Program-made: the position numbers and the translations under genes | The notes under the pieces: generated by a model | What the model saw: the letters and a program-made list of their open reading frames with translations, nothing else | What the model was told of the DNA's origin: nothing | Databases searched by the model: none | Source: a virus | Lineage: Duplodnaviria > Heunggongvirae > Uroviricota > Caudoviricetes | Reading direction: 5' to 3' (one strand) | DNA: 35,657 bases | Virus record (IMG/VR): IMGVR_UViG_2541047892_000001 | Shown here: positions 3,681 through 30,862 of the stretch, in pieces | Layout: every line of letters starts with the position of its first letter | How positions within the stretch are numbered: position 1 is the first letter of the stretch

Positions 3681-4018
3681 AGCAGTTCCTGAGTACGGGG
3701 TTGTCCGTCTGAGCCTTTCCAGCTCACCCGGAGCGTAAGATGTTCGCCGTCGACGGCGGGTTTAACCGACATAAGCTGGCAGCGGGGTTCCCAGCGCCTG
3801 ATGGCATCGACGGATTCGCGAACCACATGCGGAATGGCCCGGTCGACAGGCCAGTCGATATAAAGGTGCAGATTGCTGCCGAACTCTGGGCGATGCGGGT
3901 CGCTGCCGCGGGGAGTCCGCAGGATGATCTGGATGGACTGCTGGATATCATCCAGCCCCCGGACGATTTCGCCGGGAGCCTGCAGAGCCGGTTGCCAGAA
4001 TACTGAGGTCGTTTTCAT
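3671..4018 (-). CDS. Baseplate protein, gpW / gp25 lysozyme-like (Mu gp46)
   Basis: 115 aa; LDDIQQSIQIILRTPRGSDPHRPEFGS matches the GPW/gp25 family motif. Confidence 0.85.
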   Translation of the reverse strand: MKTTSVFWQPALQAPGEIVRGLDDIQQSIQIILRTPRGSDPHRPEFGSNLHLYIDWPVDRAIPHVVRESVDAIRRWEPRCQLMSVKPAVDGEHLTLRVSWKGSDGQPRTQELLWR

Positions 4019-4089
4019 GGGGGCAGTATTGCCCCAGTAAGAAAAGAACGATATTAAAGGGATTTAAAAAGGAGTTATTGATACGTTTG

Positions 4090-4965
4090 TTAAATTACGA
4101 AAACCTTGACGATAAGTTCTCCGTCTTTAGAGACTCTCTTCCCCTCAAGATCAGATTTCAGCCCCTCAGAATTAGTAATAAGCTGGTTCGGATCGTAGAT
4201 GACACACCAGAGATTTTTGCAATCAGAGTGCCGACGATAATGCTCTATATCGATAATAAGTTCATCGCCGATTTTCTTTGCATGAGAACGATCACGAACA
4301 ATTTTGGTTTCCAGTACTAATTTATGCGCAGGTAACAAAAAATCCATTCGAGTACTTGAACCAGCGTAACTTGGAGTAAACTCTTCTGGGCGGATGTCCT
4401 GAACCCATGGTCTGAGCAATGCATGGAGAAGGTCTTGCACGTCATATTCATTGCTAAAAGATAATGACTGGCTTCCTTTTCGCCTATGAGTAAGTGGATG
4501 CATTGCTCGCTGTAAGCCTTTGACCAGCCTTTCCAGTAAGTTCTCAACTTTTTCTGGCATTACTGGCTGTTGATAAGTAATTATGGTCTCTGGGTAATCC
4601 ATATTGTGTGACGGGATGTGGCCTTCAGGCAACACTCGACCAAAACGATAATATCTAAGTCCATTCTCTTGTAACACAGCTTCAATTCTGTCTCGTTTTT
4701 CCTTCCATTCTGCATATTCGGGAGTACCTTCTTTTGGAGGTAAATCCATAAACTCCTCAATTACTCCGCCCAGAACTGCCAGACTATCTGTATCTGGATC
4801 TTGCCCTGCAAGAAATAACCAGTCTTTCCATTTTGTACTATGAGATCCTGCCGGAGGGTTTCCTGGTGCTCCCGAAGTAAGAAATAACGTATCTAAAGCT
4901 GCATGAGAGCCTGAGTTAGCAATGACATCGCCAACTACTTTACATAAGGATCTTGATAACCGCAT
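4090..4965 (-). CDS. Accessory (moron) protein with predicted C-terminal PD-(D/E)xK nuclease fold; candidate defence gene
   Basis: 291 aa ORF in an AT-rich island between two conserved baseplate genes; C-terminal NEYDVQDLL...RMDFLLPAHKLVLETKIV fits the E...D...ExK pattern; GGGGA ribosome-binding site 5-9 nt upstream of ATG. Confidence 0.6.
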   Translation of the reverse strand: MRLSRSLCKVVGDVIANSGSHAALDTLFLTSGAPGNPPAGSHSTKWKDWLFLAGQDPDTDSLAVLGGVIEEFMDLPPKEGTPEYAEWKEKRDRIEAVLQENGLRYYRFGRVLPEGHIPSHNMDYPETIITYQQPVMPEKVENLLERLVKGLQRAMHPLTHRRKGSQSLSFSNEYDVQDLLHALLRPWVQDIRPEEFTPSYAGSSTRMDFLLPAHKLVLETKIVRDRSHAKKIGDELIIDIEHYRRHSDCKNLWCVIYDPNQLITNSEGLKSDLEGKRVSKDGELIVKVFVI

Positions 4966-5046
4966 TTAAGTCCCCGCCAAATTAGTGTTAATTAAAAAAT
5001 TCTATCATATCCGCGGGAGAGGAAATGGAGTCACATACTTGAAAAA

Positions 5047-5559: not shown

Positions 5560-6710
5560 TTTTTCTTCTCCTTAATCACCGTCGATGTACTGCCATCCGG
5601 GTGATAAACCGTGAGTTTCTGAGTTTTTTGTTTTTTCCCTCTTGTGACTGGCCCCCGTGCCACTTCCAGCTCTGTGGTGTAGCCGCTGTTACGCTCAAAC
5701 GCATGGCGGGCAGTGATTATCAGCCATGGACCGGATAATTGTCCAAAGCCCACCAGTTCAATTTTGTTGCCTGCTGTCAGTTGAGGCGTTCCCGTCAGCG
5801 TCAGGGAGCCGTTCTGCTGGTATTCGTTATGTCTGGCCAGTGCTGAATCCGCTTTAATCCGGGCACTGTCCGGGTCGCTGACGCGGCTGTTAACTTTAAG
5901 TGAGTCAGCGCTGGTAACCTTACCGCCTTTGAGCTTTTTGTCGCTTTCACGGGTACCACCATCAGCTTCGTAGACGATCAGTTTTTTACTGCTGCTTTTC
6001 TGGTGTTTTACCTTTGCAGATTTATAGACCCGGTTGATGGTGTCACGCAGGGAAAAGTGGGCCACATCCTGCGGTTTTAACTGCCTGACCGGCTCCTGAC
6101 TGCGCAATGTGGCCAGATGAGAAAAAATCAACTGGTCACTGACCACTTTCACTGCATAACCATACTCGCTGGCCAGCCGGCGCAGAAAACCCACGTCGGT
6201 TTCAGCATACTGGGTCACCCGGTCGATTCTGATGGACTCAATGCTGCCCACCAGTTTCAGCCGGTGCTTTCTGGCAATCCGACCCGCAACAGCTGCCAGC
6301 GTGGTGTTCTCAAAACCACGGCTGGATTTAGTCCGCAGAGCACTGTTAACCGAGGTGGCCACCCCACGGATAGCGACAACGGACGCGGGCGAACTCACTT
6401 CGATCTCGTCTATTGAGAATGTACCGTAGGACAGCAGTTTCTCGCCCTGATAACCCATTTTCAGCGTCAGCGTGTCACCCTTGCCCGGATACCACTTATC
6501 CAGCCAGCGGCCATCGGTGTCGTCCAGCTCCACCTCAATGGTATCGGACTCATTTTTGATGTTATCGCTCCAGACCACACGGGTGACATAAGGCGCGATA
6601 TCAGAGGTGATGTTTTTCTGCAAATACCACAGAGTGAATACCGGCGTCAGCACATCGCTGACGCCGGTTAACGCTGATGTGGCTTGCGCAGTACTGTTTA
6701 TCTCAGCCAT
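5556..6710 (-). CDS. Tail/baseplate hub protein, gpD-like (Mu gp44)
   Basis: 384 aa; late control gene D family features; stop/start overlap with neighbours. Confidence 0.75.
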   Translation of the reverse strand: MAEINSTAQATSALTGVSDVLTPVFTLWYLQKNITSDIAPYVTRVVWSDNIKNESDTIEVELDDTDGRWLDKWYPGKGDTLTLKMGYQGEKLLSYGTFSIDEIEVSSPASVVAIRGVATSVNSALRTKSSRGFENTTLAAVAGRIARKHRLKLVGSIESIRIDRVTQYAETDVGFLRRLASEYGYAVKVVSDQLIFSHLATLRSQEPVRQLKPQDVAHFSLRDTINRVYKSAKVKHQKSSSKKLIVYEADGGTRESDKKLKGGKVTSADSLKVNSRVSDPDSARIKADSALARHNEYQQNGSLTLTGTPQLTAGNKIELVGFGQLSGPWLIITARHAFERNSGYTTELEVARGPVTRGKKQKTQKLTVYHPDGSTSTVIKEKKK

Positions 6711-22102: not shown

Positions 22103-22428
22103 TATTGACCTCCGGTATTGCGGTACTGCTGTACCACTTCCAGTTTGTTATAAAGCGCGTCCAGTTTGGCCTCAATGACTGTCTGGCCACGGATATAATC
22201 CTCTCGACGGACATAATTCAGCGGTAAATCCGCTTTAAATCGCATAAATTCTTTTTCCAGCTCGCCCCAGTTGGAGGCGGATTGTTGCAGGGCCTGTTCA
22301 AGGGAGGCGAATCGTGCCGCCTGGCGTTCTTCTGTTTTACTGAACAACCATTTGGCGAGCCCTCCCACAAACCCCATGAAGGTGAGCAGAAAACTCACCA
22401 CCGTCCAGAATTCAACCTGCAGTGTCAT
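22102..22428 (-). CDS. Small membrane protein with N-terminal TM helix and coiled coil (Mu gp25-like)
   Basis: 108 aa; hydrophobic N-terminus FWTVVSFLLTFMGFVGGLA followed by a helical region; adjacent to the lysis genes. Confidence 0.5.
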   Translation of the reverse strand: MTLQVEFWTVVSFLLTFMGFVGGLAKWLFSKTEERQAARFASLEQALQQSASNWGELEKEFMRFKADLPLNYVRREDYIRGQTVIEAKLDALYNKLEVVQQYRNTGGQ

Positions 22429-23075
22429 TTCTGTAATCCTTCCCGTTCATCCAGCAGCGCGTTTATCTGGTTCCGCCAGCGACGACATTGCCATGCGTTG
22501 TCGATGATGTTGGCGAGAACGTCACGCTGGGAGACACCCGAATCGCGTAACCGGGTGTCAGTGGTTTCAGGTTGCCCGGTCGCTGTGCCAGAGCGGGTGC
22601 CAGTGGCGGCAACTGAGTCTGAATGACCGGTGTCGACGGATGCGTTGTCATATCCGAGTGCGGCGTTGTACTGGCGCACGAAACCGCGAGTAAACACGCA
22701 CTCAATGGGATGACTCTTACCTTTTTCATCAATCCAGCGCTGTGTGACATCGTTAATTTGCCCCTGTAGTTGTTTGTTCCGGCTCTCCAGTTGAGCAATC
22801 TGCTCAAGATAACCGGCTTCAGCCCGCTGCCCGGCGGCCACCTGCTCCTGATACCGTCTGGCCCAAGCCCGCAGCGCAGCATTCTCAAGCGTTGCCTGCG
22901 CCGTTTTGTACGCGTCAAATGCTGACTGCAACTGACTGAGCGCGGTATTACCGTCACGCTTTGCAGAGTCATGACCACTTCTGTATCCCATGGCATACAG
23001 GCCGATCAGAAAGGCATTGATAAGAATGGCCAGCAGAATGCCGCGCCACGGCAGCTTTTTAACCAGATGCCACAC
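22425..23075 (-). CDS. i-spanin (Rz-like)
   Basis: N-terminal TM (WRGILLAILINAFLIGLYAMGY) then a Q/A-rich coiled coil; likely GTG start at 23075 preceded by GGGGAGG with 8-nt spacing; the ORF-track start at 23177 would overlap the endolysin by about 120 nt. Confidence 0.6.
   Translation of the reverse strand: MWHLVKKLPWRGILLAILINAFLIGLYAMGYRSGHDSAKRDGNTALSQLQSAFDAYKTAQATLENAALRAWARRYQEQVAAGQRAEAGYLEQIAQLESRNKQLQGQINDVTQRWIDEKGKSHPIECVFTRGFVRQYNAALGYDNASVDTGHSDSVAATGTRSGTATGQPETTDTRLRDSGVSQRDVLANIIDNAWQCRRWRNQINALLDEREGLQK
22463..22729 (-). CDS. o-spanin (Rz1-like lipoprotein) embedded in the i-spanin gene in another frame
   Basis: ATG at 22729 gives MKKVRVIPLSACLLAVSCAST... with a lipobox (LAVSC) and a Pro-rich mature part; lies entirely inside the i-spanin CDS. 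Confidence 0.6.
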   Translation of the reverse strand: MKKVRVIPLSACLLAVSCASTTPHSDMTTHPSTPVIQTQLPPLAPALAQRPGNLKPLTPGYAIRVSPSVTFSPTSSTTHGNVVAGGTR

Positions 23076-23793
23076 AACTGCTGCCTCCCCATGTGAGATA
23101 TCGCGGTGCCAGTTCGCGCAGGATGCGCTGCGGATAATGGCGGTTCTCCCGCCAGCTGGCCGCATTGCGTCCGGCATTCACCGTGGCGACATGTCCGAAC
23201 CAGCGGGTGCTGTCCAGACCTTTCTGTGATGCAAGCCGCCTGTCCCGTTGTACCCAGCCCAGACCACCGTTATAGCCTGACAGTGTCATGGCCATACGCT
23301 CGCAGTCGTTGGCGGCGCTGACGCGCTGCCACAGCCAGCGGTCATAGCTGACCAGCGCCCGGATGGCCCATGCCGGATTAAACGGCTCACGGCTGTTAAG
23401 TCCCGGCATCAGCTGACTTATCCAGTCGGCAGTGGCAGGCATGAACTGCGCCAGTCCCTGAGCACCAGCCGGCGAGACCGCATCAGGTCGCCAGCCGCTT
23501 TCCTGATGCAGTTGCGCGGCGAAATCTGCCACCGGCGCAGACAGTCCCCATTCAAGCCGGGCATTACGGATCACATCATCGCGATACTGCAGCGCAGCCT
23601 GCGGAGGCTGCGCTGCGCGGGCCTGACTGAAGAAGCCACCACACCAGAGCAGCCAGACAATCACCAGGTTGCCAGCAAGCTGCCACCAGAAGCTGTATTT
23701 ATCGTTACGTGGTTCGCCGTGTCTGATGGCGGTTACGCCCAGACCAAAGGCGAACAGAATAATGAGGGTGATTTGAGGCCAGTTCATGGTCAC
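23059..23793 (-). CDS. Endolysin, lytic transglycosylase (SLT domain) with hydrophobic N-terminal segments
   Basis: 244 aa; SLT catalytic region QLHQESGWRPDAVSPAGAQGLAQFMPATADW; two hydrophobic stretches in the first 60 aa; start overlaps the holin stop (ATGA). Confidence 0.82.
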   Translation of the reverse strand: MTMNWPQITLIILFAFGLGVTAIRHGEPRNDKYSFWWQLAGNLVIVWLLWCGGFFSQARAAQPPQAALQYRDDVIRNARLEWGLSAPVADFAAQLHQESGWRPDAVSPAGAQGLAQFMPATADWISQLMPGLNSREPFNPAWAIRALVSYDRWLWQRVSAANDCERMAMTLSGYNGGLGWVQRDRRLASQKGLDSTRWFGHVATVNAGRNAASWRENRHYPQRILRELAPRYLTWGGSSCVASG

Positions 23794-24140
23794 AGTCCTG
23801 TTGCCACAGCCAGACAGACCGCTGCAACAATCAGTGCACGGCGGATTAACGCAGCAGAAAATACAAGGTGAAGGCCGGTCTGCACAGGGAAACGCCCTTC
23901 AGCCATCAGCCTGTCTTCATGTTTCAGGTACTGACCGGGACGGGCTTTGGGGAAGAGCGAACGGTCAAGCCAGTAACCCAGCACTGCTGCCAGCGTGATG
24001 AGTGCCAGCTTGTAGATCACAACAGGCAACTGCTGTGGCGAGACCAGAGCGATGGTGCCCAGCAACAGCACTGAGGTCAGCAGCCAGCCGCTGAGGCGAG
24101 GTTTTTTAACAGGGGGAATGAATTTTTTCAGGCTTTTCAT
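23790..24140 (-). CDS. Putative holin (three predicted TM segments)
   Basis: Three hydrophobic helices; AAGGAG 6 nt upstream of the ATG at 24140 (alternative ATG at 24170); first gene of the lysis cassette. Confidence 0.55.
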   Translation of the reverse strand: MKSLKKFIPPVKKPRLSGWLLTSVLLLGTIALVSPQQLPVVIYKLALITLAAVLGYWLDRSLFPKARPGQYLKHEDRLMAEGRFPVQTGLHLVFSAALIRRALIVAAVCLAVATGL

Positions 24141-24203
24141 GTGTGTCTCCTTGTTTGGTGGAGACAGCATCACAAATGTGGCGGGATACGGATTTTAAAG
24201 CGC

Positions 24204-24243
24204 GTTATAAGTGTTCGCAGAGGGAAGCGACCAGAATGGTCGC
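24204..24243 (-). promoter_or_regulatory. Candidate activator-dependent late promoter for the lysis operon
   Basis: Minus-strand TATAAC (24209..24204) lies 17 nt downstream of a perfect dyad GCGACC-n5-GGTCGC (24227..24243) occupying the -35 position, about 65 nt upstream of the holin start. Confidence 0.4.
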
Positions 24244-24270
24244 ACACAAAACATAGGGGAGGCAAGCACA

Positions 24271-24594
24271 ATGACTGAACCGAAACAGTCTGGTATTAAA
24301 AAAGGGTTCCTCTTTGGGAGCAGAATCGGAGAGCAGAATAAAACTTACACGCTAAGCTTGGATGCATGTTGTCCAACCGAAGCGATTATAGAGCTGAAAA
24401 ACGTTCTGGTTGCACTTGAAGAGAGAAGAAGTCATTTCGCCAGCGGAGAAAACAACGTCATGCTAATTGGCGATGTGGCGGCGACATCACGATATAAAAC
24501 CGCACCTAATCCTGCGATTCAGTTATCCTTCGACCAACGAATACTGGAAGCGGAATCAGCAGTTCCCAGAACGGTTCGTCCTCACCAGTCTTAA
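24271..24594 (+). CDS. Hypothetical small protein (107 aa), divergent from the lysis operon
   Basis: ATG at 24271 preceded by GGGGAGG with 8-nt spacing; 3' end overlaps the convergent 191-aa gene by 89 nt, so one of the two may be miscalled. Confidence 0.3.
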   Translation: MTEPKQSGIKKGFLFGSRIGEQNKTYTLSLDACCPTEAIIELKNVLVALEERRSHFASGENNVMLIGDVAATSRYKTAPNPAIQLSFDQRILEAESAVPRTVRPHQS

Positions 24595-25081
24595 CTGGGG
24601 CTGCTTCACCCGACCAGTAAAGCCAAGCACGGTGATACAGTTCCAGCACCGGGCAATCACTGTTCAATAACCTCATATCTCCGCGATGCACCTGCTCATT
24701 TGTGATGACTTCATATATCGGTGCCGTTCTTATTTCGTCTTCGCCTCTCTCATCAGCCAGTAATTCCCTGAACTTCCTGACTTCACTCAGATGCTGACAG
24801 GCAAACAGTGACTGATAGCGGGAAGGTTTATCAGGAAAATGGCTACGGCGAACTAACTCAAACACCAGACCGACCAGCAGACTTCTGCTGATTCCACTGT
24901 CATCTTCCATTTTAGGGCCGGGGTTATAGAGATAGTTATACCCGTGACTCGAAAGGCCATTGGGATACATCTGATGAAGAAAAGCGGCCAGTTCTGGCAT
25001 TTCAGGCTCGTATTTTCCGGTAATTACATGACAAGGCGAAGGCAGACGACTAGCGGAATCAAGTGTGTAATACGTTCCCAT
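24506..25081 (-). CDS. Hypothetical accessory protein (191 aa), no recognisable family
   Basis: ORF in the accessory region between lysis genes and repressor; separated from the upstream cassette by a 409-nt non-coding gap. Confidence 0.5.
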   Translation of the reverse strand: MGTYYTLDSASRLPSPCHVITGKYEPEMPELAAFLHQMYPNGLSSHGYNYLYNPGPKMEDDSGISRSLLVGLVFELVRRSHFPDKPSRYQSLFACQHLSEVRKFRELLADERGEDEIRTAPIYEVITNEQVHRGDMRLLNSDCPVLELYHRAWLYWSGEAAPVKTGEDEPFWELLIPLPVFVGRRITESQD

Positions 25082-25196
25082 TCAGAAAACAATCCTTATC
25101 GAACAAACACTGCACGTAGGTAATGCATCCAGTAAATCGCGTTAATAGAAATCATGTATCTCAAAACTTCACTCTGAACTCTGACAGTGAAAGAAC

Positions 25197-25228
25197 GACC
25201 AGCCCGGTACCCGAACTCCGGGCTGGTC
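25197..25228 (-). terminator. Perfect 11-bp stem / 10-nt loop hairpin; possible terminator of the repressor-linked cassette
   Basis: GACCAGCCCGG-tacccgaact-CCGGGCTGGTC; on the minus strand it is followed by GUUCUUUCA, a weak U-tract. Confidence 0.35.
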
Positions 25229-25490
25229 ATCGCCCCACAGGAATGCACTGTGAGCCGACCGAGGTTCAGTCAGTCTCGCGAGACCAGACTAGCCTGCCAT
25301 ATTTTTTATAATTATAAAAGGGTTACAGATTATGAAAATGCAGACATTCCCCATCGCTCCATGGATTGGTTGTAAACGCCGCCATGCCAGACATATTCTG
25401 GCCGATGTTTCCTAGCACGCACGAATATGAGGCAACTGACGAGAATAAATGATGCGTCAGAATGAACCGTCGACACCGTGATTTCAGGTT

Positions 25491-26102
25491 TCAAAAATCT
25501 GGAGAAGGTATATCTATCTGACCGACGTTTCGTAACCACATCTCTTGCTTTGTTTCTTTATTGGTTCGGGCGATATCATTAGCATTGTATCTGCATGTTT
25601 TAACCGCAACCTCACGAACTCGTGCTATAGGAGTATTTGTGTAGAATTTAAGATCTTCCTCTACCGCTCGTATGGCGATAAGCCCTCCACTCTGAAAACC
25701 GCTGGTTACTTTTAAAAGATCAACTCCTTGGTTATAAACGGCATTACATACGTTAGGGAACTCATCTTCTACAGTTTTGGGGATCATCAGCATATCAGGA
25801 AGACCCTGTAACACGTTATCTTCCTTTGGCCTCCATGCCCTTCCCAAAAAAGCTGTTATAGGTTGTGGTGTAGAAAGAAATGCCAATTCTATATAAAACA
25901 AACCACTGTAGTGATCGCGTAACGAATAGACTAGTAAATGATCTTTTCCAGTTTTACTTGCATTGCTAAGTTTTATATCAAATGGTTTTTTCTGGTACTT
26001 AAGCAATCCATCAACTCCCGCATAATAATGCTTTGAAACAGCAACAGAAAGTTGATGTACTTGGTTCGGATAATCTGTTCTATATCGTTTAATTAGCCCC
26101 AT
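25491..26102 (-). CDS. Hypothetical accessory protein (203 aa), third gene of the repressor-linked cassette
   Basis: AT-rich (about 36-40% GC by eye); GAGG ribosome-binding site 6 nt upstream of ATG; 20 nt downstream of the 328-aa gene. Confidence 0.6.
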   Translation of the reverse strand: MGLIKRYRTDYPNQVHQLSVAVSKHYYAGVDGLLKYQKKPFDIKLSNASKTGKDHLLVYSLRDHYSGLFYIELAFLSTPQPITAFLGRAWRPKEDNVLQGLPDMLMIPKTVEDEFPNVCNAVYNQGVDLLKVTSGFQSGGLIAIRAVEEDLKFYTNTPIARVREVAVKTCRYNANDIARTNKETKQEMWLRNVGQIDIPSPDF

Positions 26103-26122
26103 AATAGCCTCGCAGTTATTTT

Positions 26123-27109
26123 CTATTTCAAAATATAACGATATTTACTATCTGGAGTGTTTTGTTGGTCAAGTAATAGAGCTCTACATGGGGCGGTCAA
26201 AACACGGGCATAACGACCATCGGGGTTTATGTTGATGTAACAAGTTTTCCCTTTAACACCATAAGATTCAGGTATTATTGCCTGTGTAGACACCGTGAAT
26301 TTAAGGGTATGCCAGCCCGATTTTTGCTTGTAGCTTGAAACCGAATGGAAATCATCTGAGTACTTATTTAACCCTGGAAACATGCTGCGTAATGCTGGGA
26401 TGGAATCTTCTATTATTTTGTCGTTGGTTTTAATGTTAAAAACGCTGGTTTCAGTAGATGCTACTGCTTTAGCATTTCCCCATTTACCAGCGAACACAAT
26501 CATTCCCACGAAAAATATTGCGACAAGAACTAACGCTCCCCCCAACACTACTACATGAGGCTTCCGGCTTCTGGTTGGTACAGTCGCGACTGATTTTGCC
26601 CCGCTGTCCGATGGAGGTGATAGAGTTTTACTCTCATCACGAATATTCAGCAGATCATCAAAATAACCAAACACAGCCTGCAACTGCTCTTTGTCCAGGC
26701 CTTTAAGATGGGTTGTACCGAAATGCTTCAGACAGTATCTGTCACGGTCAAGACGATACCTAGGGTCAGTAAGCACCATTATTTTGCTGACCAGAAGATT
26801 ACAGTCCTTCATATTCTGGATCTGTTGTGCATATCTCTGGAGGATCTCAACCGCACCATGATAATCAGCCGCAGTCATTTCATTAACTGTTTTGGTATTA
26901 AGTTTCGTGTGGATCGTCATCCATAGTTCGCGCTTACTTTCCCCCAGATCAACCAATTCATCCATCAATCTGTGTAAATCGCGTTTTTGCAGCAACGAAA
27001 TTGGTTGCTGGGCAGAGGGAAGTATGTCAGCAGAATAGTTATGAATGGTAACATCACCGCTGACAACGTTACCCACATCTCCGTTAACTGTTTGCTTCTC
27101 TTTACTCAT
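26123..27109 (-). CDS. Hypothetical bitopic membrane protein (328 aa): N-terminal Gly-rich motif, about 190-aa cytoplasmic domain, one TM, about 110-aa C-terminal domain
   Basis: TM helix HVVVLGGALVLVAIFFVGMIVFAG; start codon overlaps the repressor stop (ATGA); AT-rich. Confidence 0.65.
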   Translation of the reverse strand: MSKEKQTVNGDVGNVVSGDVTIHNYSADILPSAQQPISLLQKRDLHRLMDELVDLGESKRELWMTIHTKLNTKTVNEMTAADYHGAVEILQRYAQQIQNMKDCNLLVSKIMVLTDPRYRLDRDRYCLKHFGTTHLKGLDKEQLQAVFGYFDDLLNIRDESKTLSPPSDSGAKSVATVPTRSRKPHVVVLGGALVLVAIFFVGMIVFAGKWGNAKAVASTETSVFNIKTNDKIIEDSIPALRSMFPGLNKYSDDFHSVSSYKQKSGWHTLKFTVSTQAIIPESYGVKGKTCYININPDGRYARVLTAPCRALLLDQQNTPDSKYRYILK

Positions 27110-27567
27110 TTTCTCTTTGTATTTTTGTTCATTATTCCACCTGTTCCTATGGTTACGTTACCTTTGATAACATTCCCCAGAACATCTCCATGAATAACCT
27201 GTTCCGCCCGTTCTCTGGAGGAGCCAGTCGTCAATGCCGACAAAACTGAACCTTTGACTTGTAACGGTGCTTGCCGGTAGTGCTGAAGTAACTCCATTTC
27301 ATCACGTGATAAAGTTATACCTGATGATTCCCCAGTAAGAATGAACTGTACGTTGGCCCCAATTCTTGCAAAGGCTGCAAGTAACTCACCTCCGGGAACT
27401 GCAACCCCTCGTTCATATTTCCCCCACATTTCTCTTGAAACGCCACAAAGGGCTGCTACTTCAGCCTGCTTGAGTGATAACCGCGAACGCTCAGCTTTGA
27501 ACCGCGACGCGCAAAGAGAATCAAAATTCACATAAACCTCATTGACAATGAGAACAATGGTTCTCAT
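27106..27567 (-). CDS. XRE-family HTH transcriptional repressor (putative prophage repressor)
   Basis: HTH_XRE signature LKQAEVAALCGVSREMWGKYERG; divergent from the early operon; alternative GTG start at 27531 with a GAGG site would leave the operator and early promoter outside the coding region. Confidence 0.8.
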   Translation of the reverse strand: MRTIVLIVNEVYVNFDSLCASRFKAERSRLSLKQAEVAALCGVSREMWGKYERGVAVPGGELLAAFARIGANVQFILTGESSGITLSRDEMELLQHYRQAPLQVKGSVLSALTTGSSRERAEQVIHGDVLGNVIKGNVTIGTGGIMNKNTKRK

Positions 27568-27570
27568 AAT
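27542..27570 (+). promoter_or_regulatory. Early promoter: -35 TTGACA, 17-bp spacer, -10 CATAAT, with an operator-like inverted repeat in the spacer
   Basis: TTGACA at 27542..27547 and CATAAT at 27565..27570; spacer contains ATGAGAAC-aatg-GTTCTCAT (27548..27567); 48 nt upstream of the first early gene. Confidence 0.55.
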
Positions 27571-27617
27571 CTATCACATATAAAACAAACATCATTGCAT
27601 CAACAAAGGAGACAACA

Positions 27618-27806
27618 ATGACTTCCGAACAAGTTAAAACTCTCTTCCGTCAGCGTGGTATCACGTTTACCCGCTGGGCCGAAGAACACGGCTACAGCCG
27701 CAATGAGGTCTATCGTGTTCTCAATGGACAGACCAAAGCTCGTTACGGCAAAGCCCATGAAATTGCCGTAAAGCTGGGATTAAAACCCACGTCAAATGCG
27801 GCATAA
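27618..27806 (+). CDS. Small Ner/Cro-like HTH DNA-binding protein (first early gene)
   Basis: 62 aa; AAGGAG 6 nt upstream; layout resembles Ner/Nlp-type regulators (weak, from memory). Confidence 0.65.
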   Translation: MTSEQVKTLFRQRGITFTRWAEEHGYSRNEVYRVLNGQTKARYGKAHEIAVKLGLKPTSNAA

Positions 27807-27858
27807 ATTTTCCATATATGCAACAGGTTATCACATATTGCAAAAATGGAAATGTGAC

Positions 27859-28167
27859 ATGAGTAAAGTAAATATCTCCAGTTCCGGGACCCGCATCCTA
27901 CGTGTACTCAAAGCTCTACGCGGTCACTCTCTGAACGGTGTTTCTAACGGTGAACTGGCATCAGCCCTAGATGAGTCCCCGGCGAACATCAATCGAGCAC
28001 TCAATACCCTTATCGAAGAGGGACTAGCCCTGAAACTGGAAAACGGGCGTTTCGCACCAGGCATCCAGTTGCTGCAGATCGCCATGGCCCACAGTAACGA
28101 GATGGCACGTGCACAGGATCGCATTAACGAAATCAACCAACGTGTTATTTCAGGTAGTCGTTTGTAA
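27859..28167 (+). CDS. Winged-helix DNA-binding protein
   Basis: ILRVLKALRGH...GVSNGELASALDESPANINRALNTLIEEGL is HTH-like; start uncertain (ATG 27859, or 27796 overlapping the previous gene). Confidence 0.55.
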   Translation: MSKVNISSSGTRILRVLKALRGHSLNGVSNGELASALDESPANINRALNTLIEEGLALKLENGRFAPGIQLLQIAMAHSNEMARAQDRINEINQRVISGSRL

Positions 28168-28177
28168 GGAGTAATCA

Positions 28178-29089
28178 ATGGGACGCACCAAATCACCGGT
28201 TAGCACTGAACTGAACGTCGAGGTACCGCTGTCGGATGATCTCAATGTCAGTCTAAACGCCATGACACAGCATCGCATGGAAATCATGCAACAGTTCGGC
28301 GATGGTCTGCCCTATGAGCGCGATCGTGTTGTCCATGAGGCACGCTTTTATATGGCACAGAGCGCTGAGGCCATGCTGGAGGCAGGTAAGCGGCTGATAA
28401 TCCTTAAGGAAAATGAACCACACGGGGAGTTTATAAAGATTCTTGAAAGTGAGTTGGGGCTGGCATACCGGACATCTGTGAGAATGATGCAAGCATCGAC
28501 AAAATACTTATCCCCGGCGCTGAAACCAAATGTGCCAACGTTGGCACATTTGGGAAAAGCCAAACTTTTCGAATTAATGACAGAAGACGACGAAGAGCTT
28601 GCCGAACTGGCCGACGGCGGCACAGTTGCCGGCATGACGCTTGACGATGTTGATCGCATGTCAGTACGTGAATTGCGTCAGGCCCTGCGTGAAGCGCGCG
28701 AAACCAACGCAGCACAACAGCGTGTTCTCGCCGATAAAAATGAAAAAATAGACTCACTCTCCACCAGACTGGAGAAGAAATCCCGTATTCAGCCACCTGA
28801 GCCTGATGAAGAGGTGAAGAAACTGCGGGCGGAAGTGACCGCGTTAGCGGTTGAGGCGGAATCTGCCATCGCCGTTCGACTGTCCAGCGCTTTTGAGACA
28901 CTGTGCGCATATTGTGCTGAAAACATGATTGATACCCCCAGAGACTTCATGGCAGGCCTGGTCTGTCAACTGGAAAGCACAGCGCGTAGCCTGCGCTCCA
29001 CATTTGACCTGCCGGACGAGCCAACAGGCGATGTCGCGCCTTCATGGCTGACTGAGCCGACGCCACAGATTAACGGGCTGGAGGCATAA
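28178..29089 (+). CDS. Hypothetical early protein (303 aa) with central coiled coil
   Basis: AAGGAG 6 nt upstream of ATG; lies between the regulators and the transposase; no family recognised. Confidence 0.6.
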   Translation: MGRTKSPVSTELNVEVPLSDDLNVSLNAMTQHRMEIMQQFGDGLPYERDRVVHEARFYMAQSAEAMLEAGKRLIILKENEPHGEFIKILESELGLAYRTSVRMMQASTKYLSPALKPNVPTLAHLGKAKLFELMTEDDEELAELADGGTVAGMTLDDVDRMSVRELRQALREARETNAAQQRVLADKNEKIDSLSTRLEKKSRIQPPEPDEEVKKLRAEVTALAVEAESAIAVRLSSAFETLCAYCAENMIDTPRDFMAGLVCQLESTARSLRSTFDLPDEPTGDVAPSWLTEPTPQINGLEA

Positions 29090-29092
29090 CCA

Positions 29093-30862
29093 ATGAATGC
29101 TGCCCTGACTGAACGACTGGTTTATGTCGCCCGCGCGGCACGTGACGCGGGGCATGGTAAACGCGGTGCAATATACGACGCTGCCTGTGCTGAACTTGGC
29201 ATGTCCCGCGCCACTCTGCTGCGCAGGCTGAAGGAGGTATCTGTGACTGATAAACGCAAAAAACGCGCCGATGCCGGGCGCAGCGCCCTGACCCGCGACG
29301 AAGCCGCGCTGATATCTGCCACACTGCGTGAGGCCACCCGCAAGAACGGTAAGCGTCTCTATTCCATCGCAGATGCAGTGGAAACCCTGCGGGCTAACGG
29401 CTTTATCTCCGCAGGCAGAACAGATGAAACCACCGGTGAGTTTTTCCCGTTGTCCGAAGATGCCATCAGTCGTGCCTTGCGTAACTATGGCCTGCACCCG
29501 GAACAACTGGATGCCCCTGCGCCGCATACCGAAGTGGCCAGTCTGCATCCCAATCACGTCTGGCAGATTGATGCCTCGCTCTGCACGCTTTACTACCTGA
29601 GCAATGGACACAAAGGGCTGCAGGTGATGGACAGCGCGAAGTTCTACAAGAATAAACCCGCTAACCTTGCCCGTATCGCCAGTGACCGCGTGTGGAGTTA
29701 CGAGATTACCGACCATGCCAGCGGCTGGATTTACGTTGAGTATGTGACGGGTGCGGAATCCGGTGAGAACCTGTGTTCTGTGCTTATCAACGCCATGCAG
29801 GAGCGTGGCGGCGCAGACGTGCTGCACGGCGTGCCGAAAATACTCTATCTCGACCCCGGCTCGGCAAACACCGCGGGTATGACGAAAAACATGTGCCGCT
29901 CACTGGGCATCGACCTGATAGCGCACAAGCCGCATAACGCCCGCGCCACCGGACAGGTGGAAAAGGCGCGTGACATTATCGAACGCAAGCTGGAGCCGGG
30001 TCTGAAATTCCGGCCGGTTCACAGTCTGGAAGAACTCAACGCGCTGGCCGCGAAATGGCGTAGCCACTTTAACGCAACAGCTGTTCACAGCCGCCACGGT
30101 AAAACCCGCACGGATATCTGGCTGAAGATTACTGCTGAGCAGCTGAAAAAAGCGCCTTCCGTTGAGGTATGCCGTGAACTGGCTGTGGCGACACCAGAAC
30201 TCCGCAAAGTCACGCCAAAACTTCGTGTCTCGTTCCGGGGCACTGAATTTGACGTATCAACGGTACCGGGCGTACTGGTTGGTGAAAAACTGATGATTAC
30301 CCGTAACCCATGGCGCAGCGATGTGGCACAGGTGGTTCTGACCGGTGAGGACGGCCACGAGACGTTCTTCCTGGTCGAAGAGGTCAGAAAGAACGAGTTT
30401 GGCTTTGCTGAAGGCGCGGCGGTATTTGGCGAAAGTTACAAAGCCCTGCCGGAAACACCGGCACAGACGGCGGCAAAAGAAACCGAAGCGCTGGTCACCG
30501 GTACAGACAACGCCGCAGATGCAGCTGCCGCACGCAAGGCGAAGGCGCTGCCGTTCGGCGGGCGGCTTGACCCGTATAAACATATTGATGACGCCACACT
30601 TCCGGCCTGTATACCGAAGCGCGGTCAGGTCTCTGATGTACGCAGACCGCGCACTGAACAACGTCCCATGACTCATGTGGAGGCCGCGAAAGCCCTGCGC
30701 GATAAGTTCAGCGCCGACGGCCTTACCTGGACGCCGGAACATTACCGCCAGTTAACGGCACAGTACCCGGACGGCGTACCGGAAGCCGCACTGGATGAAG
30801 TAATGGCCACGCTGACCACGCCGGCCCGCAGCAGCGTTATCAGCATTGTTAACGGCAACTGA
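29093..30862 (+). CDS. DDE (rve/integrase-core type) transposase
   Basis: 589 aa; candidate catalytic residues in HVWQIDAS, LYLDPGSANT and a downstream Glu; GGAGG 8 nt upstream; followed by an AAA+ ATPase; no resemblance to the MuA N-terminus. Confidence 0.8.
   Translation: MNAALTERLVYVARAARDAGHGKRGAIYDAACAELGMSRATLLRRLKEVSVTDKRKKRADAGRSALTRDEAALISATLREATRKNGKRLYSIADAVETLRANGFISAGRTDETTGEFFPLSEDAISRALRNYGLHPEQLDAPAPHTEVASLHPNHVWQIDASLCTLYYLSNGHKGLQVMDSAKFYKNKPANLARIASDRVWSYEITDHASGWIYVEYVTGAESGENLCSVLINAMQERGGADVLHGVPKILYLDPGSANTAGMTKNMCRSLGIDLIAHKPHNARATGQVEKARDIIERKLEPGLKFRPVHSLEELNALAAKWRSHFNATAVHSRHGKTRTDIWLKITAEQLKKAPSVEVCRELAVATPELRKVTPKLRVSFRGTEFDVSTVPGVLVGEKLMITRNPWRSDVAQVVLTGEDGHETFFLVEEVRKNEFGFAEGAAVFGESYKALPETPAQTAAKETEALVTGTDNAADAAAARKAKALPFGGRLDPYKHIDDATLPACIPKRGQVSDVRRPRTEQRPMTHVEAAKALRDKFSADGLTWTPEHYRQLTAQYPDGVPEAALDEVMATLTTPARSSVISIVNGN

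Follow-up and report, generated by a model that had tools for sequence, protein, structure and literature searches.

A repressor and membrane protein pair with matched terminal motifs and a catalytically dead transposase core in the immunity operon of a BcepMu-like Escherichia coli prophage

We analyzed a 35,657-nt stretch of viral DNA (Duplodnaviria; Heunggongvirae; Uroviricota; Caudoviricetes; IMG/VR record IMGVR_UViG_2541047892_000001), hereafter the window, with a focus on three consecutive open reading frames (ORFs) of its minus strand that encode an XRE-family repressor of 153 amino acids (aa), a 328-aa membrane protein, and a 203-aa protein (Table 1). We found that the repressor and the 328-aa protein carry matching segments that co-vary from pair to pair, and that the 203-aa protein has the fold of a transposase catalytic core from which the catalytic triad has been lost. 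The stop codon of the repressor gene and the start codon of the 328-aa gene share the sequence ATGA, a 4-nt overlap, and the TAG stop of the 328-aa gene is followed by a 20-nt spacer, which contains a GAGG Shine-Dalgarno-like site, and then by the ATG of the 203-aa gene. The ORF list and the junction sequence confirmed this arrangement, which an earlier note on this DNA had described. The same note had called the genes AT-rich relative to the rest of the phage, and this held: the GC content is 0.45 for the repressor gene, 0.43 for the 328-aa gene, and 0.39 for the 203-aa gene, compared to 0.56 for the structural backbone and 0.54 for the early region. RefSeq annotates the same three coding sequences in identical prophages.

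By its gene content, the window is a BcepMu-like transposable prophage of Escherichia coli. It encodes a BcepMu gp16/Ner protein, a helix-turn-helix (HTH) protein of the IclR type, a DUF3102 protein, a DDE (Asp-Asp-Glu) transposase, an ATPase of the ExeA type, Gam, GemA, and Mor; these early genes run along the plus strand from 27618, with the transposase gene at 29093-30862. The minus strand carries the structural and lysis genes, including a holin gene (23790-24173) and an SLT transglycosylase gene. The three-gene region is the lysogeny (immunity) operon of this prophage, and its repressor gene is divergent from the early lytic operon with Ner and the transposase in the gene map. The repressor matches Pfam HTH_31 (PF13560, E = 4.7e-7) and HTH_3 (PF01381, E = 8.5e-5) as well as the PHROG repressor families phrog_8 and phrog_2328. 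Since its annotated ATG has no Shine-Dalgarno site, whereas a GTG at 27531 has GAGG 6 nt upstream and would yield a 141-aa protein in line with the 131-139 aa of its homologues, the GTG is, from these sequence features, probably the true start. If this start is used, the early-promoter-like site at 27542-27570 falls in the intergenic region.

Identical or near-identical prophages are present in E. coli chromosomes at differing host sites. The copy in E. coli B7A adjoins ybaV/fadM, and the copy in E. coli JNEC-KY202 lies inside the pdu operon, where it truncates an adenosyltransferase gene; in their own loci (L084 and L085), the right end of both copies maps to about 22260-22440. Because near-identical copies occupy different host sites, a signature of transposition-type integration, the lineage has been mobile recently. 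In phage PhiKM, all three genes are missing and a Dam methylase gene is in their place.

All three genes would be expressed with the repressor in the lysogen, as suggested by the gene arrangement and by the Pseudomonas transposable phage Fc02, in which exclusion genes are co-transcribed with the repressor (PMC9936078). The likeness to cI-rexAB that the earlier note drew is consistent with the position of the genes behind a repressor and with this precedent, and co-transcription itself is to that extent probable.

Table 1. Positions of the features of the immunity operon and of its surroundings in the window.
Feature	Position	Strand	Description
XRE-family prophage repressor	27106..27567	-	153-aa ORF; HTH residues 20-68
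Repressor C-terminal tail motif QVIHGDVLGNVIKGNVTIG	27145..27201	-	residues 123-141; matches head of 328-aa protein
Bitopic inner-membrane protein (predicted), 328 aa	26123..27109	-	head motif, Flk_N cytoplasmic domain, one transmembrane helix, periplasmic alpha/beta domain
Head motif QTVNGDVGNVVSGDVTIHN	27038..27094	-	residues 6-24, near N-terminus of 328-aa protein
Flk_N-type helical cytoplasmic domain	26630..27019	-	residues ~31-160; AlphaFold pLDDT 77-95
Single transmembrane helix VVVLGGALVLVAIFFVGMIVFAG	26486..26554	-	residues 186-208; hydrophobic stretch after RSRKPH; AlphaFold helix 192-206
Periplasmic alpha/beta domain (predicted)	26126..26449	-	residues ~221-328 (~108 aa); AlphaFold pLDDT 81-95
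Catalytically dead DDE-transposase core, RNase H-like fold	25491..26102	-	203 aa; DDE-equivalent positions S19, P108, G139
Promoter-like site in the 409-nt spacer between 203-aa gene and DUF2441 gene	25338-25311	-	
Terminator-like hairpin	25217-25201		in the same 409-nt spacer (25082-25490)
DUF2441 protein, 191 aa	24506-25081	-	PF10386 E = 1.7e-7, phrog_5663; between cassette and holin
Promoter-like TTGACA-17-CATAAT	27542-27570	+	early operon; overlaps 5' end of annotated repressor ORF
Ner-like / BcepMu gp16 early regulator	27618..27806	+	TIGR04111 BcepMu_gp16 E = 4e-27; divergent, marks switch region
Catalytic core of the prophage's own DDE transposase	29534..30133	+	residues ~148-347; D160, D254, E290; rve match and alignments

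The repressor gene and the 328-aa gene travel together. The 1.4-kb segment that contains both is present in 127 of 5426 complete E. coli genomes, and the pair is also found in other Enterobacterales and in non-Mu prophages. Across 15 IMG/VR prophage contigs with 52-100% protein identity, the two genes are always adjacent and joined by the same ATGA, and the third slot is variable. A repressor of the same family is likewise followed by an Flk_N protein, the domain type of the N-terminal half of the 328-aa protein, in a distant Mu-like prophage (L060) and in two integrase-type, non-Mu prophages (L061 and L078), where this protein is tail-anchored. Judged from these comparisons, the repressor and the 328-aa protein are a conserved two-gene module, and the 328-aa gene is not a free moron.

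The third gene behaves differently. It accompanies the module in 27 of the 127 E. coli genomes and is 99.8-100% conserved in those 27. In sister prophages whose repressor is 99% and whose 328-aa gene is 95% identical, an unrelated gene takes its position (phrog_12025 in strain 504838, phrog_11791 in strain A24). The full trio recurs in the same order in Serratia prophages, with 42% identity for the repressor, 30% for the membrane protein, and 56% for the third protein. The single three-gene cassette that the earlier note had proposed is not supported by these counts, given also that the third gene is solitary in other phyla. The synteny comparison it had called for showed the third gene to be separable, whereas the repressor and 328-aa genes stay paired. 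Its idea of an exclusion or defense insert is weakened for the 328-aa protein, which as a conserved repressor partner comes close to the conserved phage proteins that the note itself had set against that idea.

The 328-aa protein corresponds to phrog_10002 over its full length (E = 1.4e-222). The NCBIfam model Flk (PRK10715) matches residues 19-147 (E = 1.6e-11) at 44 bits compared to a family cut-off of 353, and PF27202 (Flk_N) is recorded on its homologues; the N-terminal part also matches PHROG 6521, of the category 'moron ... membrane protein'. Hence, the earlier claim that neither downstream protein belongs to a recognized family holds for local Pfam and PADLOC scans and fails in deeper searches, which connect the 328-aa protein to phrog_10002 and Flk/Flk_N and the 203-aa protein to a transposase core. 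To date, the 328-aa family is annotated only as hypothetical. Its predicted layout agrees with the large cytoplasmic N-domain, single transmembrane helix, and C-terminal domain of about 110 aa described before, as there is one hydrophobic segment and AlphaFold places a helical domain on one side of it and an alpha/beta domain on the other. The model has low confidence for residues 1-30 and shows a disordered linker between the helical N-domain and the transmembrane helix. The basic residues before the helix, the nature of the two domains, and the cysteines C290 and C308 of the C-domain, which are invariant in the homologue alignment, suggest that the N-terminus is cytoplasmic and the C-terminal domain periplasmic.

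Using an exhaustive profile search, we found the N-half alone as tail-anchored proteins of 185-270 aa and the C-half alone as lipobox-bearing lipoproteins of 130-200 aa; in Flk-like proteins, the N-domain is present in two or three copies. In the distant Mu-like prophage represented by L060 and L083, the order is repressor, tail-anchored Flk_N protein, C-domain lipoprotein. Since the two parts are separate neighbors there, the E. coli 328-aa protein is a fusion of two neighboring genes. The N-domain also has a relationship to anti-repressors: 24 of 47 diverse Flk_N proteins match PHROG 245 ('anti-repressor Ant', best E = 2.3e-8), and 12 of the 47 match a second anti-repressor family, phrog_2127. 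Fold searches with the 328-aa protein gave nothing convincing, and its N-domain had no tblastn match in deposited phage genomes.

Two variations on the periplasmic part were seen. In the Serratia-type prophages L057 and L058, an extra stand-alone transmembrane segment plus C-domain (6132-6524), which matches residues 194-319 of the 328-aa protein at 25% identity, lies directly after the 328-aa homologue, which is the slot of the 203-aa gene in the window. In the integrase-type prophages L061 (4778-5422) and L078 (3032-3682), a VasI-like (PF11319) secreted protein rather than a C-domain lipoprotein follows the repressor and Flk_N pair. Hence, a periplasmic third component recurs at that place and its family differs.

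The repressor and its partner resemble each other in one segment. The tail of the E. coli repressor aligns locally with the N-terminus of the 328-aa protein with a score of 55, compared to a mean of 19.7 for shuffled sequences (z = 8.6). In the head motif, G10, G13, N14, V15, V16, S17, G18, V20, and I22 are invariant among 19 homologues. The motif has about 17 residues, its sequence is specific to each pair, and it co-varies between pairs. The repressor tail and the partner head are, respectively, FHGKVGNVVQGD and FKGDVGNVAGRD in the Serratia pair, VGQYIEGSVNQAG and VGQVAEGDINNFG in L060, QRIAGRDFHE and NRVAGNDFHE in L061, QRVAGRDYHE and NRVAGRDYYE in L078, QQFNAGVGTVTSGDITN and QEFNDVVDQVAAGDIKN in L081, and QQFNAPIHQMAGRDIRN and QQFNAPVQQVANRDVVN in L077.

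For eight divergent pairs, a small sample in which some pairs are related to each other, the mean Smith-Waterman score was 45.4 for cognate tails and heads and 26.3 for non-cognate ones, and only 4 of the 40320 permutations of partners reached the observed cognate sum. Seven of the eight pairs scored above their own shuffles (z = 3.8-14.3). Had the two ends arisen in one ancient duplication and then drifted independently, cognates would not have stayed more alike than non-cognates; hence, the two ends evolve in concert. Gene conversion was rejected as the source of the match, as DNA identity across the E. coli motif pair is just 56%, and this low value indicates that the match is kept at the protein level. 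As a side observation, the partner in L077 is a short ORF 3' of the tailed repressor (about 900-1130) with a nearly perfect copy of the tail motif; it has neither a recognizable start codon nor an Flk_N domain and encodes either a mini-protein or a partner that has degenerated.

The 203-aa protein had no match in Pfam (including rve), NCBIfam, PHROG, or PADLOC scans, and a profile search with its family against the sequences of solved structures gave chance matches only (E >= 0.57). Its relationship to transposases surfaced only through a fold search and through profile and pairwise comparison with the transposase of the same prophage. The predicted fold is confident and complete and is that of an RNase H-like catalytic core. 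With BLASTP, the protein matches the prophage's transposase at E = 5e-11 (23% identity over 194 residues), and with hhalign its residues 7-193 align to transposase residues 148-347 with a probability of 96% (E = 4.3e-9, 181 columns). Three control proteins aligned at E = 0.16-0.66 in the same comparison; these were the third genes of the sister prophages L002 and L003 (E = 0.58-0.66) and the DUF2441 protein, which were therefore rejected as hidden members of the family.

As judged from the alignment, this protein is catalytically dead. D160, D254, and E290 of the window transposase are conserved in 7 of 7 BcepMu-like and Mu-like transposases, whereas in none of 66 family members aligned with them is any of these columns occupied by an aspartate or glutamate. 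The first of the columns is variable (S, T, I, N, and others), the second is P in 54 of 66, and the third is G in 45 of 66. Other motifs are common to the family and to real Mu-type transposases (PNxVHQL, (R/T)DHxSG, GxP, and TK/RxxxW), and 15 positions are invariant and about 25 nearly invariant across phyla. Because the motifs shared with the real enzymes are kept, what is conserved appears to be the scaffold rather than a new active site. The protein is confined to this core and has neither end-binding DNA-binding domains nor a partner ATPase gene of its own. By these sequence criteria, it is not a transposase but a pseudo-enzyme derived from one.

The dead-core family is widespread. It comprises at least 224 clusters at 90% identity, all of about 190-245 aa and single-domain, with no Pfam entry and annotated as 'hypothetical', from Gammaproteobacteria, Bacteroidota, Acidobacteriota, Chlamydiota, Desulfobacterota, Ignavibacteriota, and candidate division WOR-3. 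The enterobacterial gene was found solely inside transposable prophages. In at least 29 genomes of other phyla, the gene is solitary with no fixed neighbor, and an all-against-all BLAST of 212 neighboring proteins found no conserved partner. Neighbors in these phyla include RhuM (PADLOC candidate PDC-S05), Eco57I/N6 methylases, XhoI, ResIII, HamA, Fic, ParE, RelE, and HipA, so that the neighborhoods have the flavor of defense and toxin-antitoxin islands, a description based on lists of neighbors and not on background-corrected enrichment. Among 50,697 deposited phage records, tblastn found no stand-alone homologue, and only the transposase A genes of BcepMu-like and Pseudomonas B3-like transposable phages matched.

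Family members score 36-62 bits against a zetaproteobacterial Mu-like transposase and 16-48 bits against enterobacterial ones. Since the zetaproteobacterial enzyme scores higher, a recent duplication of the phage's own transposase was rejected as the origin of the 203-aa gene, and the gene is old and horizontally acquired. On the zetaproteobacterial contig (L043), a partial second copy of a transposase N-terminus (1648-2313, 68% identical) ends in a run of X and is probably an assembly artefact rather than a real truncated transposase gene.

The operon may be seen as a variation on known themes, namely accessory genes behind a repressor, regulators made from truncated transposases, and signaling by matched motifs. 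The Tn5 inhibitor Inh arises from an alternative start within the transposase gene and retains the catalytic residues together with the C-terminal dimerization region. By analogy, the 203-aa protein is also a transposase derivative without the DNA-binding part, would be made alongside the element, and could poison assemblies in trans. However, it is encoded by a separate, anciently diverged gene, 3 kb from the transposase gene on the other strand and 23% identical to it; it is a core only, has lost the DDE residues, and is solitary over many phyla. With MuA, TnsB, and BcepMu-type transposases (retroviral integrase superfamily), it shares the core fold and sequence homology; in contrast to them, it lacks the DDE residues (S19, P108, and G139 instead), the end-binding N-terminal domains, the beta-barrel, domain III, and an ATPase gene of its own. 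In phage Mu, repressor c shares its DNA-binding domain with the N-terminal domain of MuA, a precedent in a transposable phage for an immunity-region protein with a transposase domain; there, the shared part is a DNA-binding domain in the repressor itself, whereas here it is the catalytic core in an accessory gene.

The 328-aa protein shares with Flk a homologous helical Flk_N domain, held by a single helix at the cytoplasmic face of the inner membrane. Flk differs in that it has two or three copies of the domain, no periplasmic domain, and no GDVGNV-type head, is encoded at a host locus, and acts at the flagellar export gate. Given the bit score far below the family cut-off and the location in a prophage immunity operon, the 328-aa protein is, by sequence, not an Flk orthologue. 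Its likeness to Ant anti-repressors (PHROG 245, 2127, and 463) lies in the matches of half of the Flk_N members to an Ant family and in the position beside a repressor gene, which fits a repressor-binding role; Ant proteins, however, are soluble and belong to separately controlled operons, whereas the 328-aa protein is predicted to be membrane-anchored and is translationally coupled to the repressor. Single-pass anti-sigma factors of the RseA type offer a functional analogy without homology or signs of regulated proteolysis, since a bitopic protein of this sort could hold a transcription factor with its cytoplasmic domain and sense the envelope with its periplasmic domain. Lambda cI-rexA-rexB and Fc02 also have accessory genes behind the repressor, one of them encoding a membrane protein; no sequence or fold relationship links them to the genes here, among which the membrane protein and the repressor have evolved together and the third is an independent moron derived from a transposase.

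The matched motif is reminiscent of amyloid signaling pairs, such as fungal HET-S/NWD2, the bacterial BASS motifs, and Bab/Agp of E. coli prophages (bioRxiv 10.1101/2024.11.07.622273, 10.1101/2020.01.06.895854). As in those pairs, a short G/N/V/Q-rich motif at the C-terminus of the upstream protein recurs at the N-terminus of the downstream protein, is pair-specific, and is prophage-encoded. The partners here, however, are an XRE repressor and an Flk_N membrane protein instead of an NLR (NOD-like receptor) or TPR (tetratricopeptide repeat) sensor and a pore-forming effector of the Bell or HeLo type, and the likeness is one of geometry seen in sequence. The motif may mediate simple strand pairing or mimicry.

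We have high confidence in the identities of the proteins, as distinct from their mechanisms. For the latter, our preferred reading, which is tentative and may well prove wrong, is that the operon holds two separable units: the repressor and its membrane partner, linked by matched segments, and the 203-aa dead core, a moron that acts as a decoy or inhibitor of transposition. The 328-aa protein would sit in the inner membrane with its anti-repressor-related Flk_N domain facing the cytoplasm and a disulfide-containing domain facing the periplasm. Its first 25 or so residues are a copy of the repressor's last structured segment, and the two proteins might use these matched segments, together with Flk_N, to contact each other or compete for the same site, or the membrane protein might mimic the repressor tail. 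The membrane protein could then modulate the repressor, for instance by tethering or titrating it at the membrane, with the periplasmic domain supplying an input or an exclusion function, and the lysis-lysogeny switch or exclusion would be linked in this way to the envelope. The 203-aa protein is an independently acquired moron, an ancient stand-alone copy of a Mu-type core. Without catalysis, it could bind transposase or transposition intermediates, either as a decoy or as a poison subunit, and so dampen or block replicative transposition. In the lysogen, incoming transposable phages would be excluded, leaky transposase would be silenced further, or both.

Several observations weigh against these proposals. 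The Mu transpososome is assembled chiefly through the DNA-binding domains and domain III; because the dead core lacks these, it may not enter the transpososome. As the lineage that carries it is evidently still mobile, any inhibition of its own transposase must be weak or conditional. Most of the family is found in genomes without Mu-like genes within 6 kb, as in 29 non-enterobacterial loci, and the dead core of the window scores 48 bits against the transposase of its own phage, compared to 62 bits against the zetaproteobacterial one; hence, it is not a tailored autoregulator. On the side of the pair, the 328-aa protein itself has no match to the Ant PHROGs at E <= 0.01 or to Pfam ANT/AntA, the motif pair of L082 is not significant, the tailed repressor of L079 has no partner, and the Flk_N protein of L063 has no adjacent tailed repressor.

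Other explanations divide according to which of the proteins they concern. The most serious contender, though doubtful, is that the 328-aa protein acts in conventional superinfection exclusion, as a membrane protein that blocks DNA entry or a receptor on the periplasmic side, and that the tail and head resemble each other as a shared protease or chaperone signal or a self-association motif. Ltp is a known family of exclusion lipoproteins, and one of the stand-alone homologues of the periplasmic domain, which are themselves lipoproteins, is fused to Ltp repeats. The bitopic topology, the periplasmic domain with conserved cysteines, the extra copies of the gene for this domain in some phages, and the match to PHROG 6521 also fit exclusion. 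A shared signal for a host protease, however, is not expected to co-vary by pair, and many members of the family are tail-anchored with no periplasmic domain and still lie behind a matching repressor. Because so many members do without the periplasmic domain, the conserved part of the family is the cytoplasmic, anti-repressor-related one. A second proposal, a single exclusion or abortive-infection system of the cI-rexAB type made up of all three genes, with the membrane protein as effector and the 203-aa protein as sensor, is very unlikely. It draws on the tight packing of AT-rich genes on one strand, on the recurrence of the same order in Serratia prophages at 30-57% identity, and on the exclusion genes in the repressor transcript of Fc02, yet the third gene is missing from 100 of the 127 E. 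coli prophages with the first two, which also occur without it in many lineages; unrelated genes replace it in sister prophages, it is solitary elsewhere, and both downstream proteins are without a PADLOC match.

For the 203-aa protein, a role unrelated to transposase interference, as a non-catalytic nucleic-acid-binding regulator or a defense sensor with the RNase H-like scaffold as its platform, is unlikely. Such a role would suit a family that is solitary over many phyla, with no Mu-like genes nearby and often among restriction-modification, toxin-antitoxin, and defense genes, and whose member here shows no special closeness to the transposase of its own phage. It would not account for invariant residues that are largely those of real Mu-type transposases (PNxVHQL, DHxSG, GxP, TKxxxW), nor for the restriction of the enterobacterial gene to transposable prophages, and no new family-specific polar cluster is evident. 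That the ORF is a decaying, functionless transposase fragment is hardly credible: the loss of the catalytic residues and of all flanking transposase domains would fit decay, but the at least 224 clusters are uniform in length with invariant positions held across phyla, the predicted fold is complete, the frame is intact behind a Shine-Dalgarno site, and the gene is nearly unchanged in its 27 E. coli genomes. Exclusion or defense is a reasonable, unproven hypothesis, especially for this protein.

The strongest joint form of these proposals is quite unlikely to hold in full, namely that the matched, co-evolving terminal peptides are templating or strand-pairing signals akin to those of Bab/Agp or HET-S/NWD2 and couple the lysis-lysogeny decision in an entire group of prophages to a periplasmic or envelope signal, a mechanism not described for any repressor, and that the dead core is the first member of a widespread single-gene defense family that guards bacteria and prophages against Mu-like phages by poisoning the transpososome. 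The odds that one or both parts prove to be new mechanisms are modest. As transposable phages replicate by transposition, a dead core of the proposed kind would be a new and simple block to that replication, and it would provide a natural inhibitor scaffold for the MuA/TnsB-type enzymes used in genome engineering, from a family annotated so far merely as hypothetical proteins. The co-varying tail and head open a direct experimental route to the question of how induction or immunity might be tied to the envelope in some prophages, and matched-motif signaling, known so far for immune sensors and pore-forming effectors, could extend to transcriptional repressors. The RefSeq accessions of the three proteins appear in no paper of the library searched.

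Turning to the flanks, a scan with PADLOC-DB 2.0 gave no match for the 328-aa, 203-aa, and DUF2441 proteins and only generic HTH matches for the repressor. No RNA family of Rfam matched within 24000-28200, and no terminator-like site was seen directly after the 203-aa gene. About 220 nt of the spacer that follows (about 25188-25409) share 84-89% DNA identity with the Dam methylase loci of Escherichia phage PhiKM and Klebsiella phage KP12; from this similarity, the stretch looks like a remnant of alternative cargo that formerly occupied the slot of the 203-aa gene. The DUF2441 gene beyond the spacer is a further moron and is also present in Klebsiella phage KP12, with 89% DNA identity. Another dip in GC content (41-42%) lies at 4001-5000 among the tail genes and coincides with a 291-aa ORF on the minus strand (4090-4965), which may be another acquired gene.

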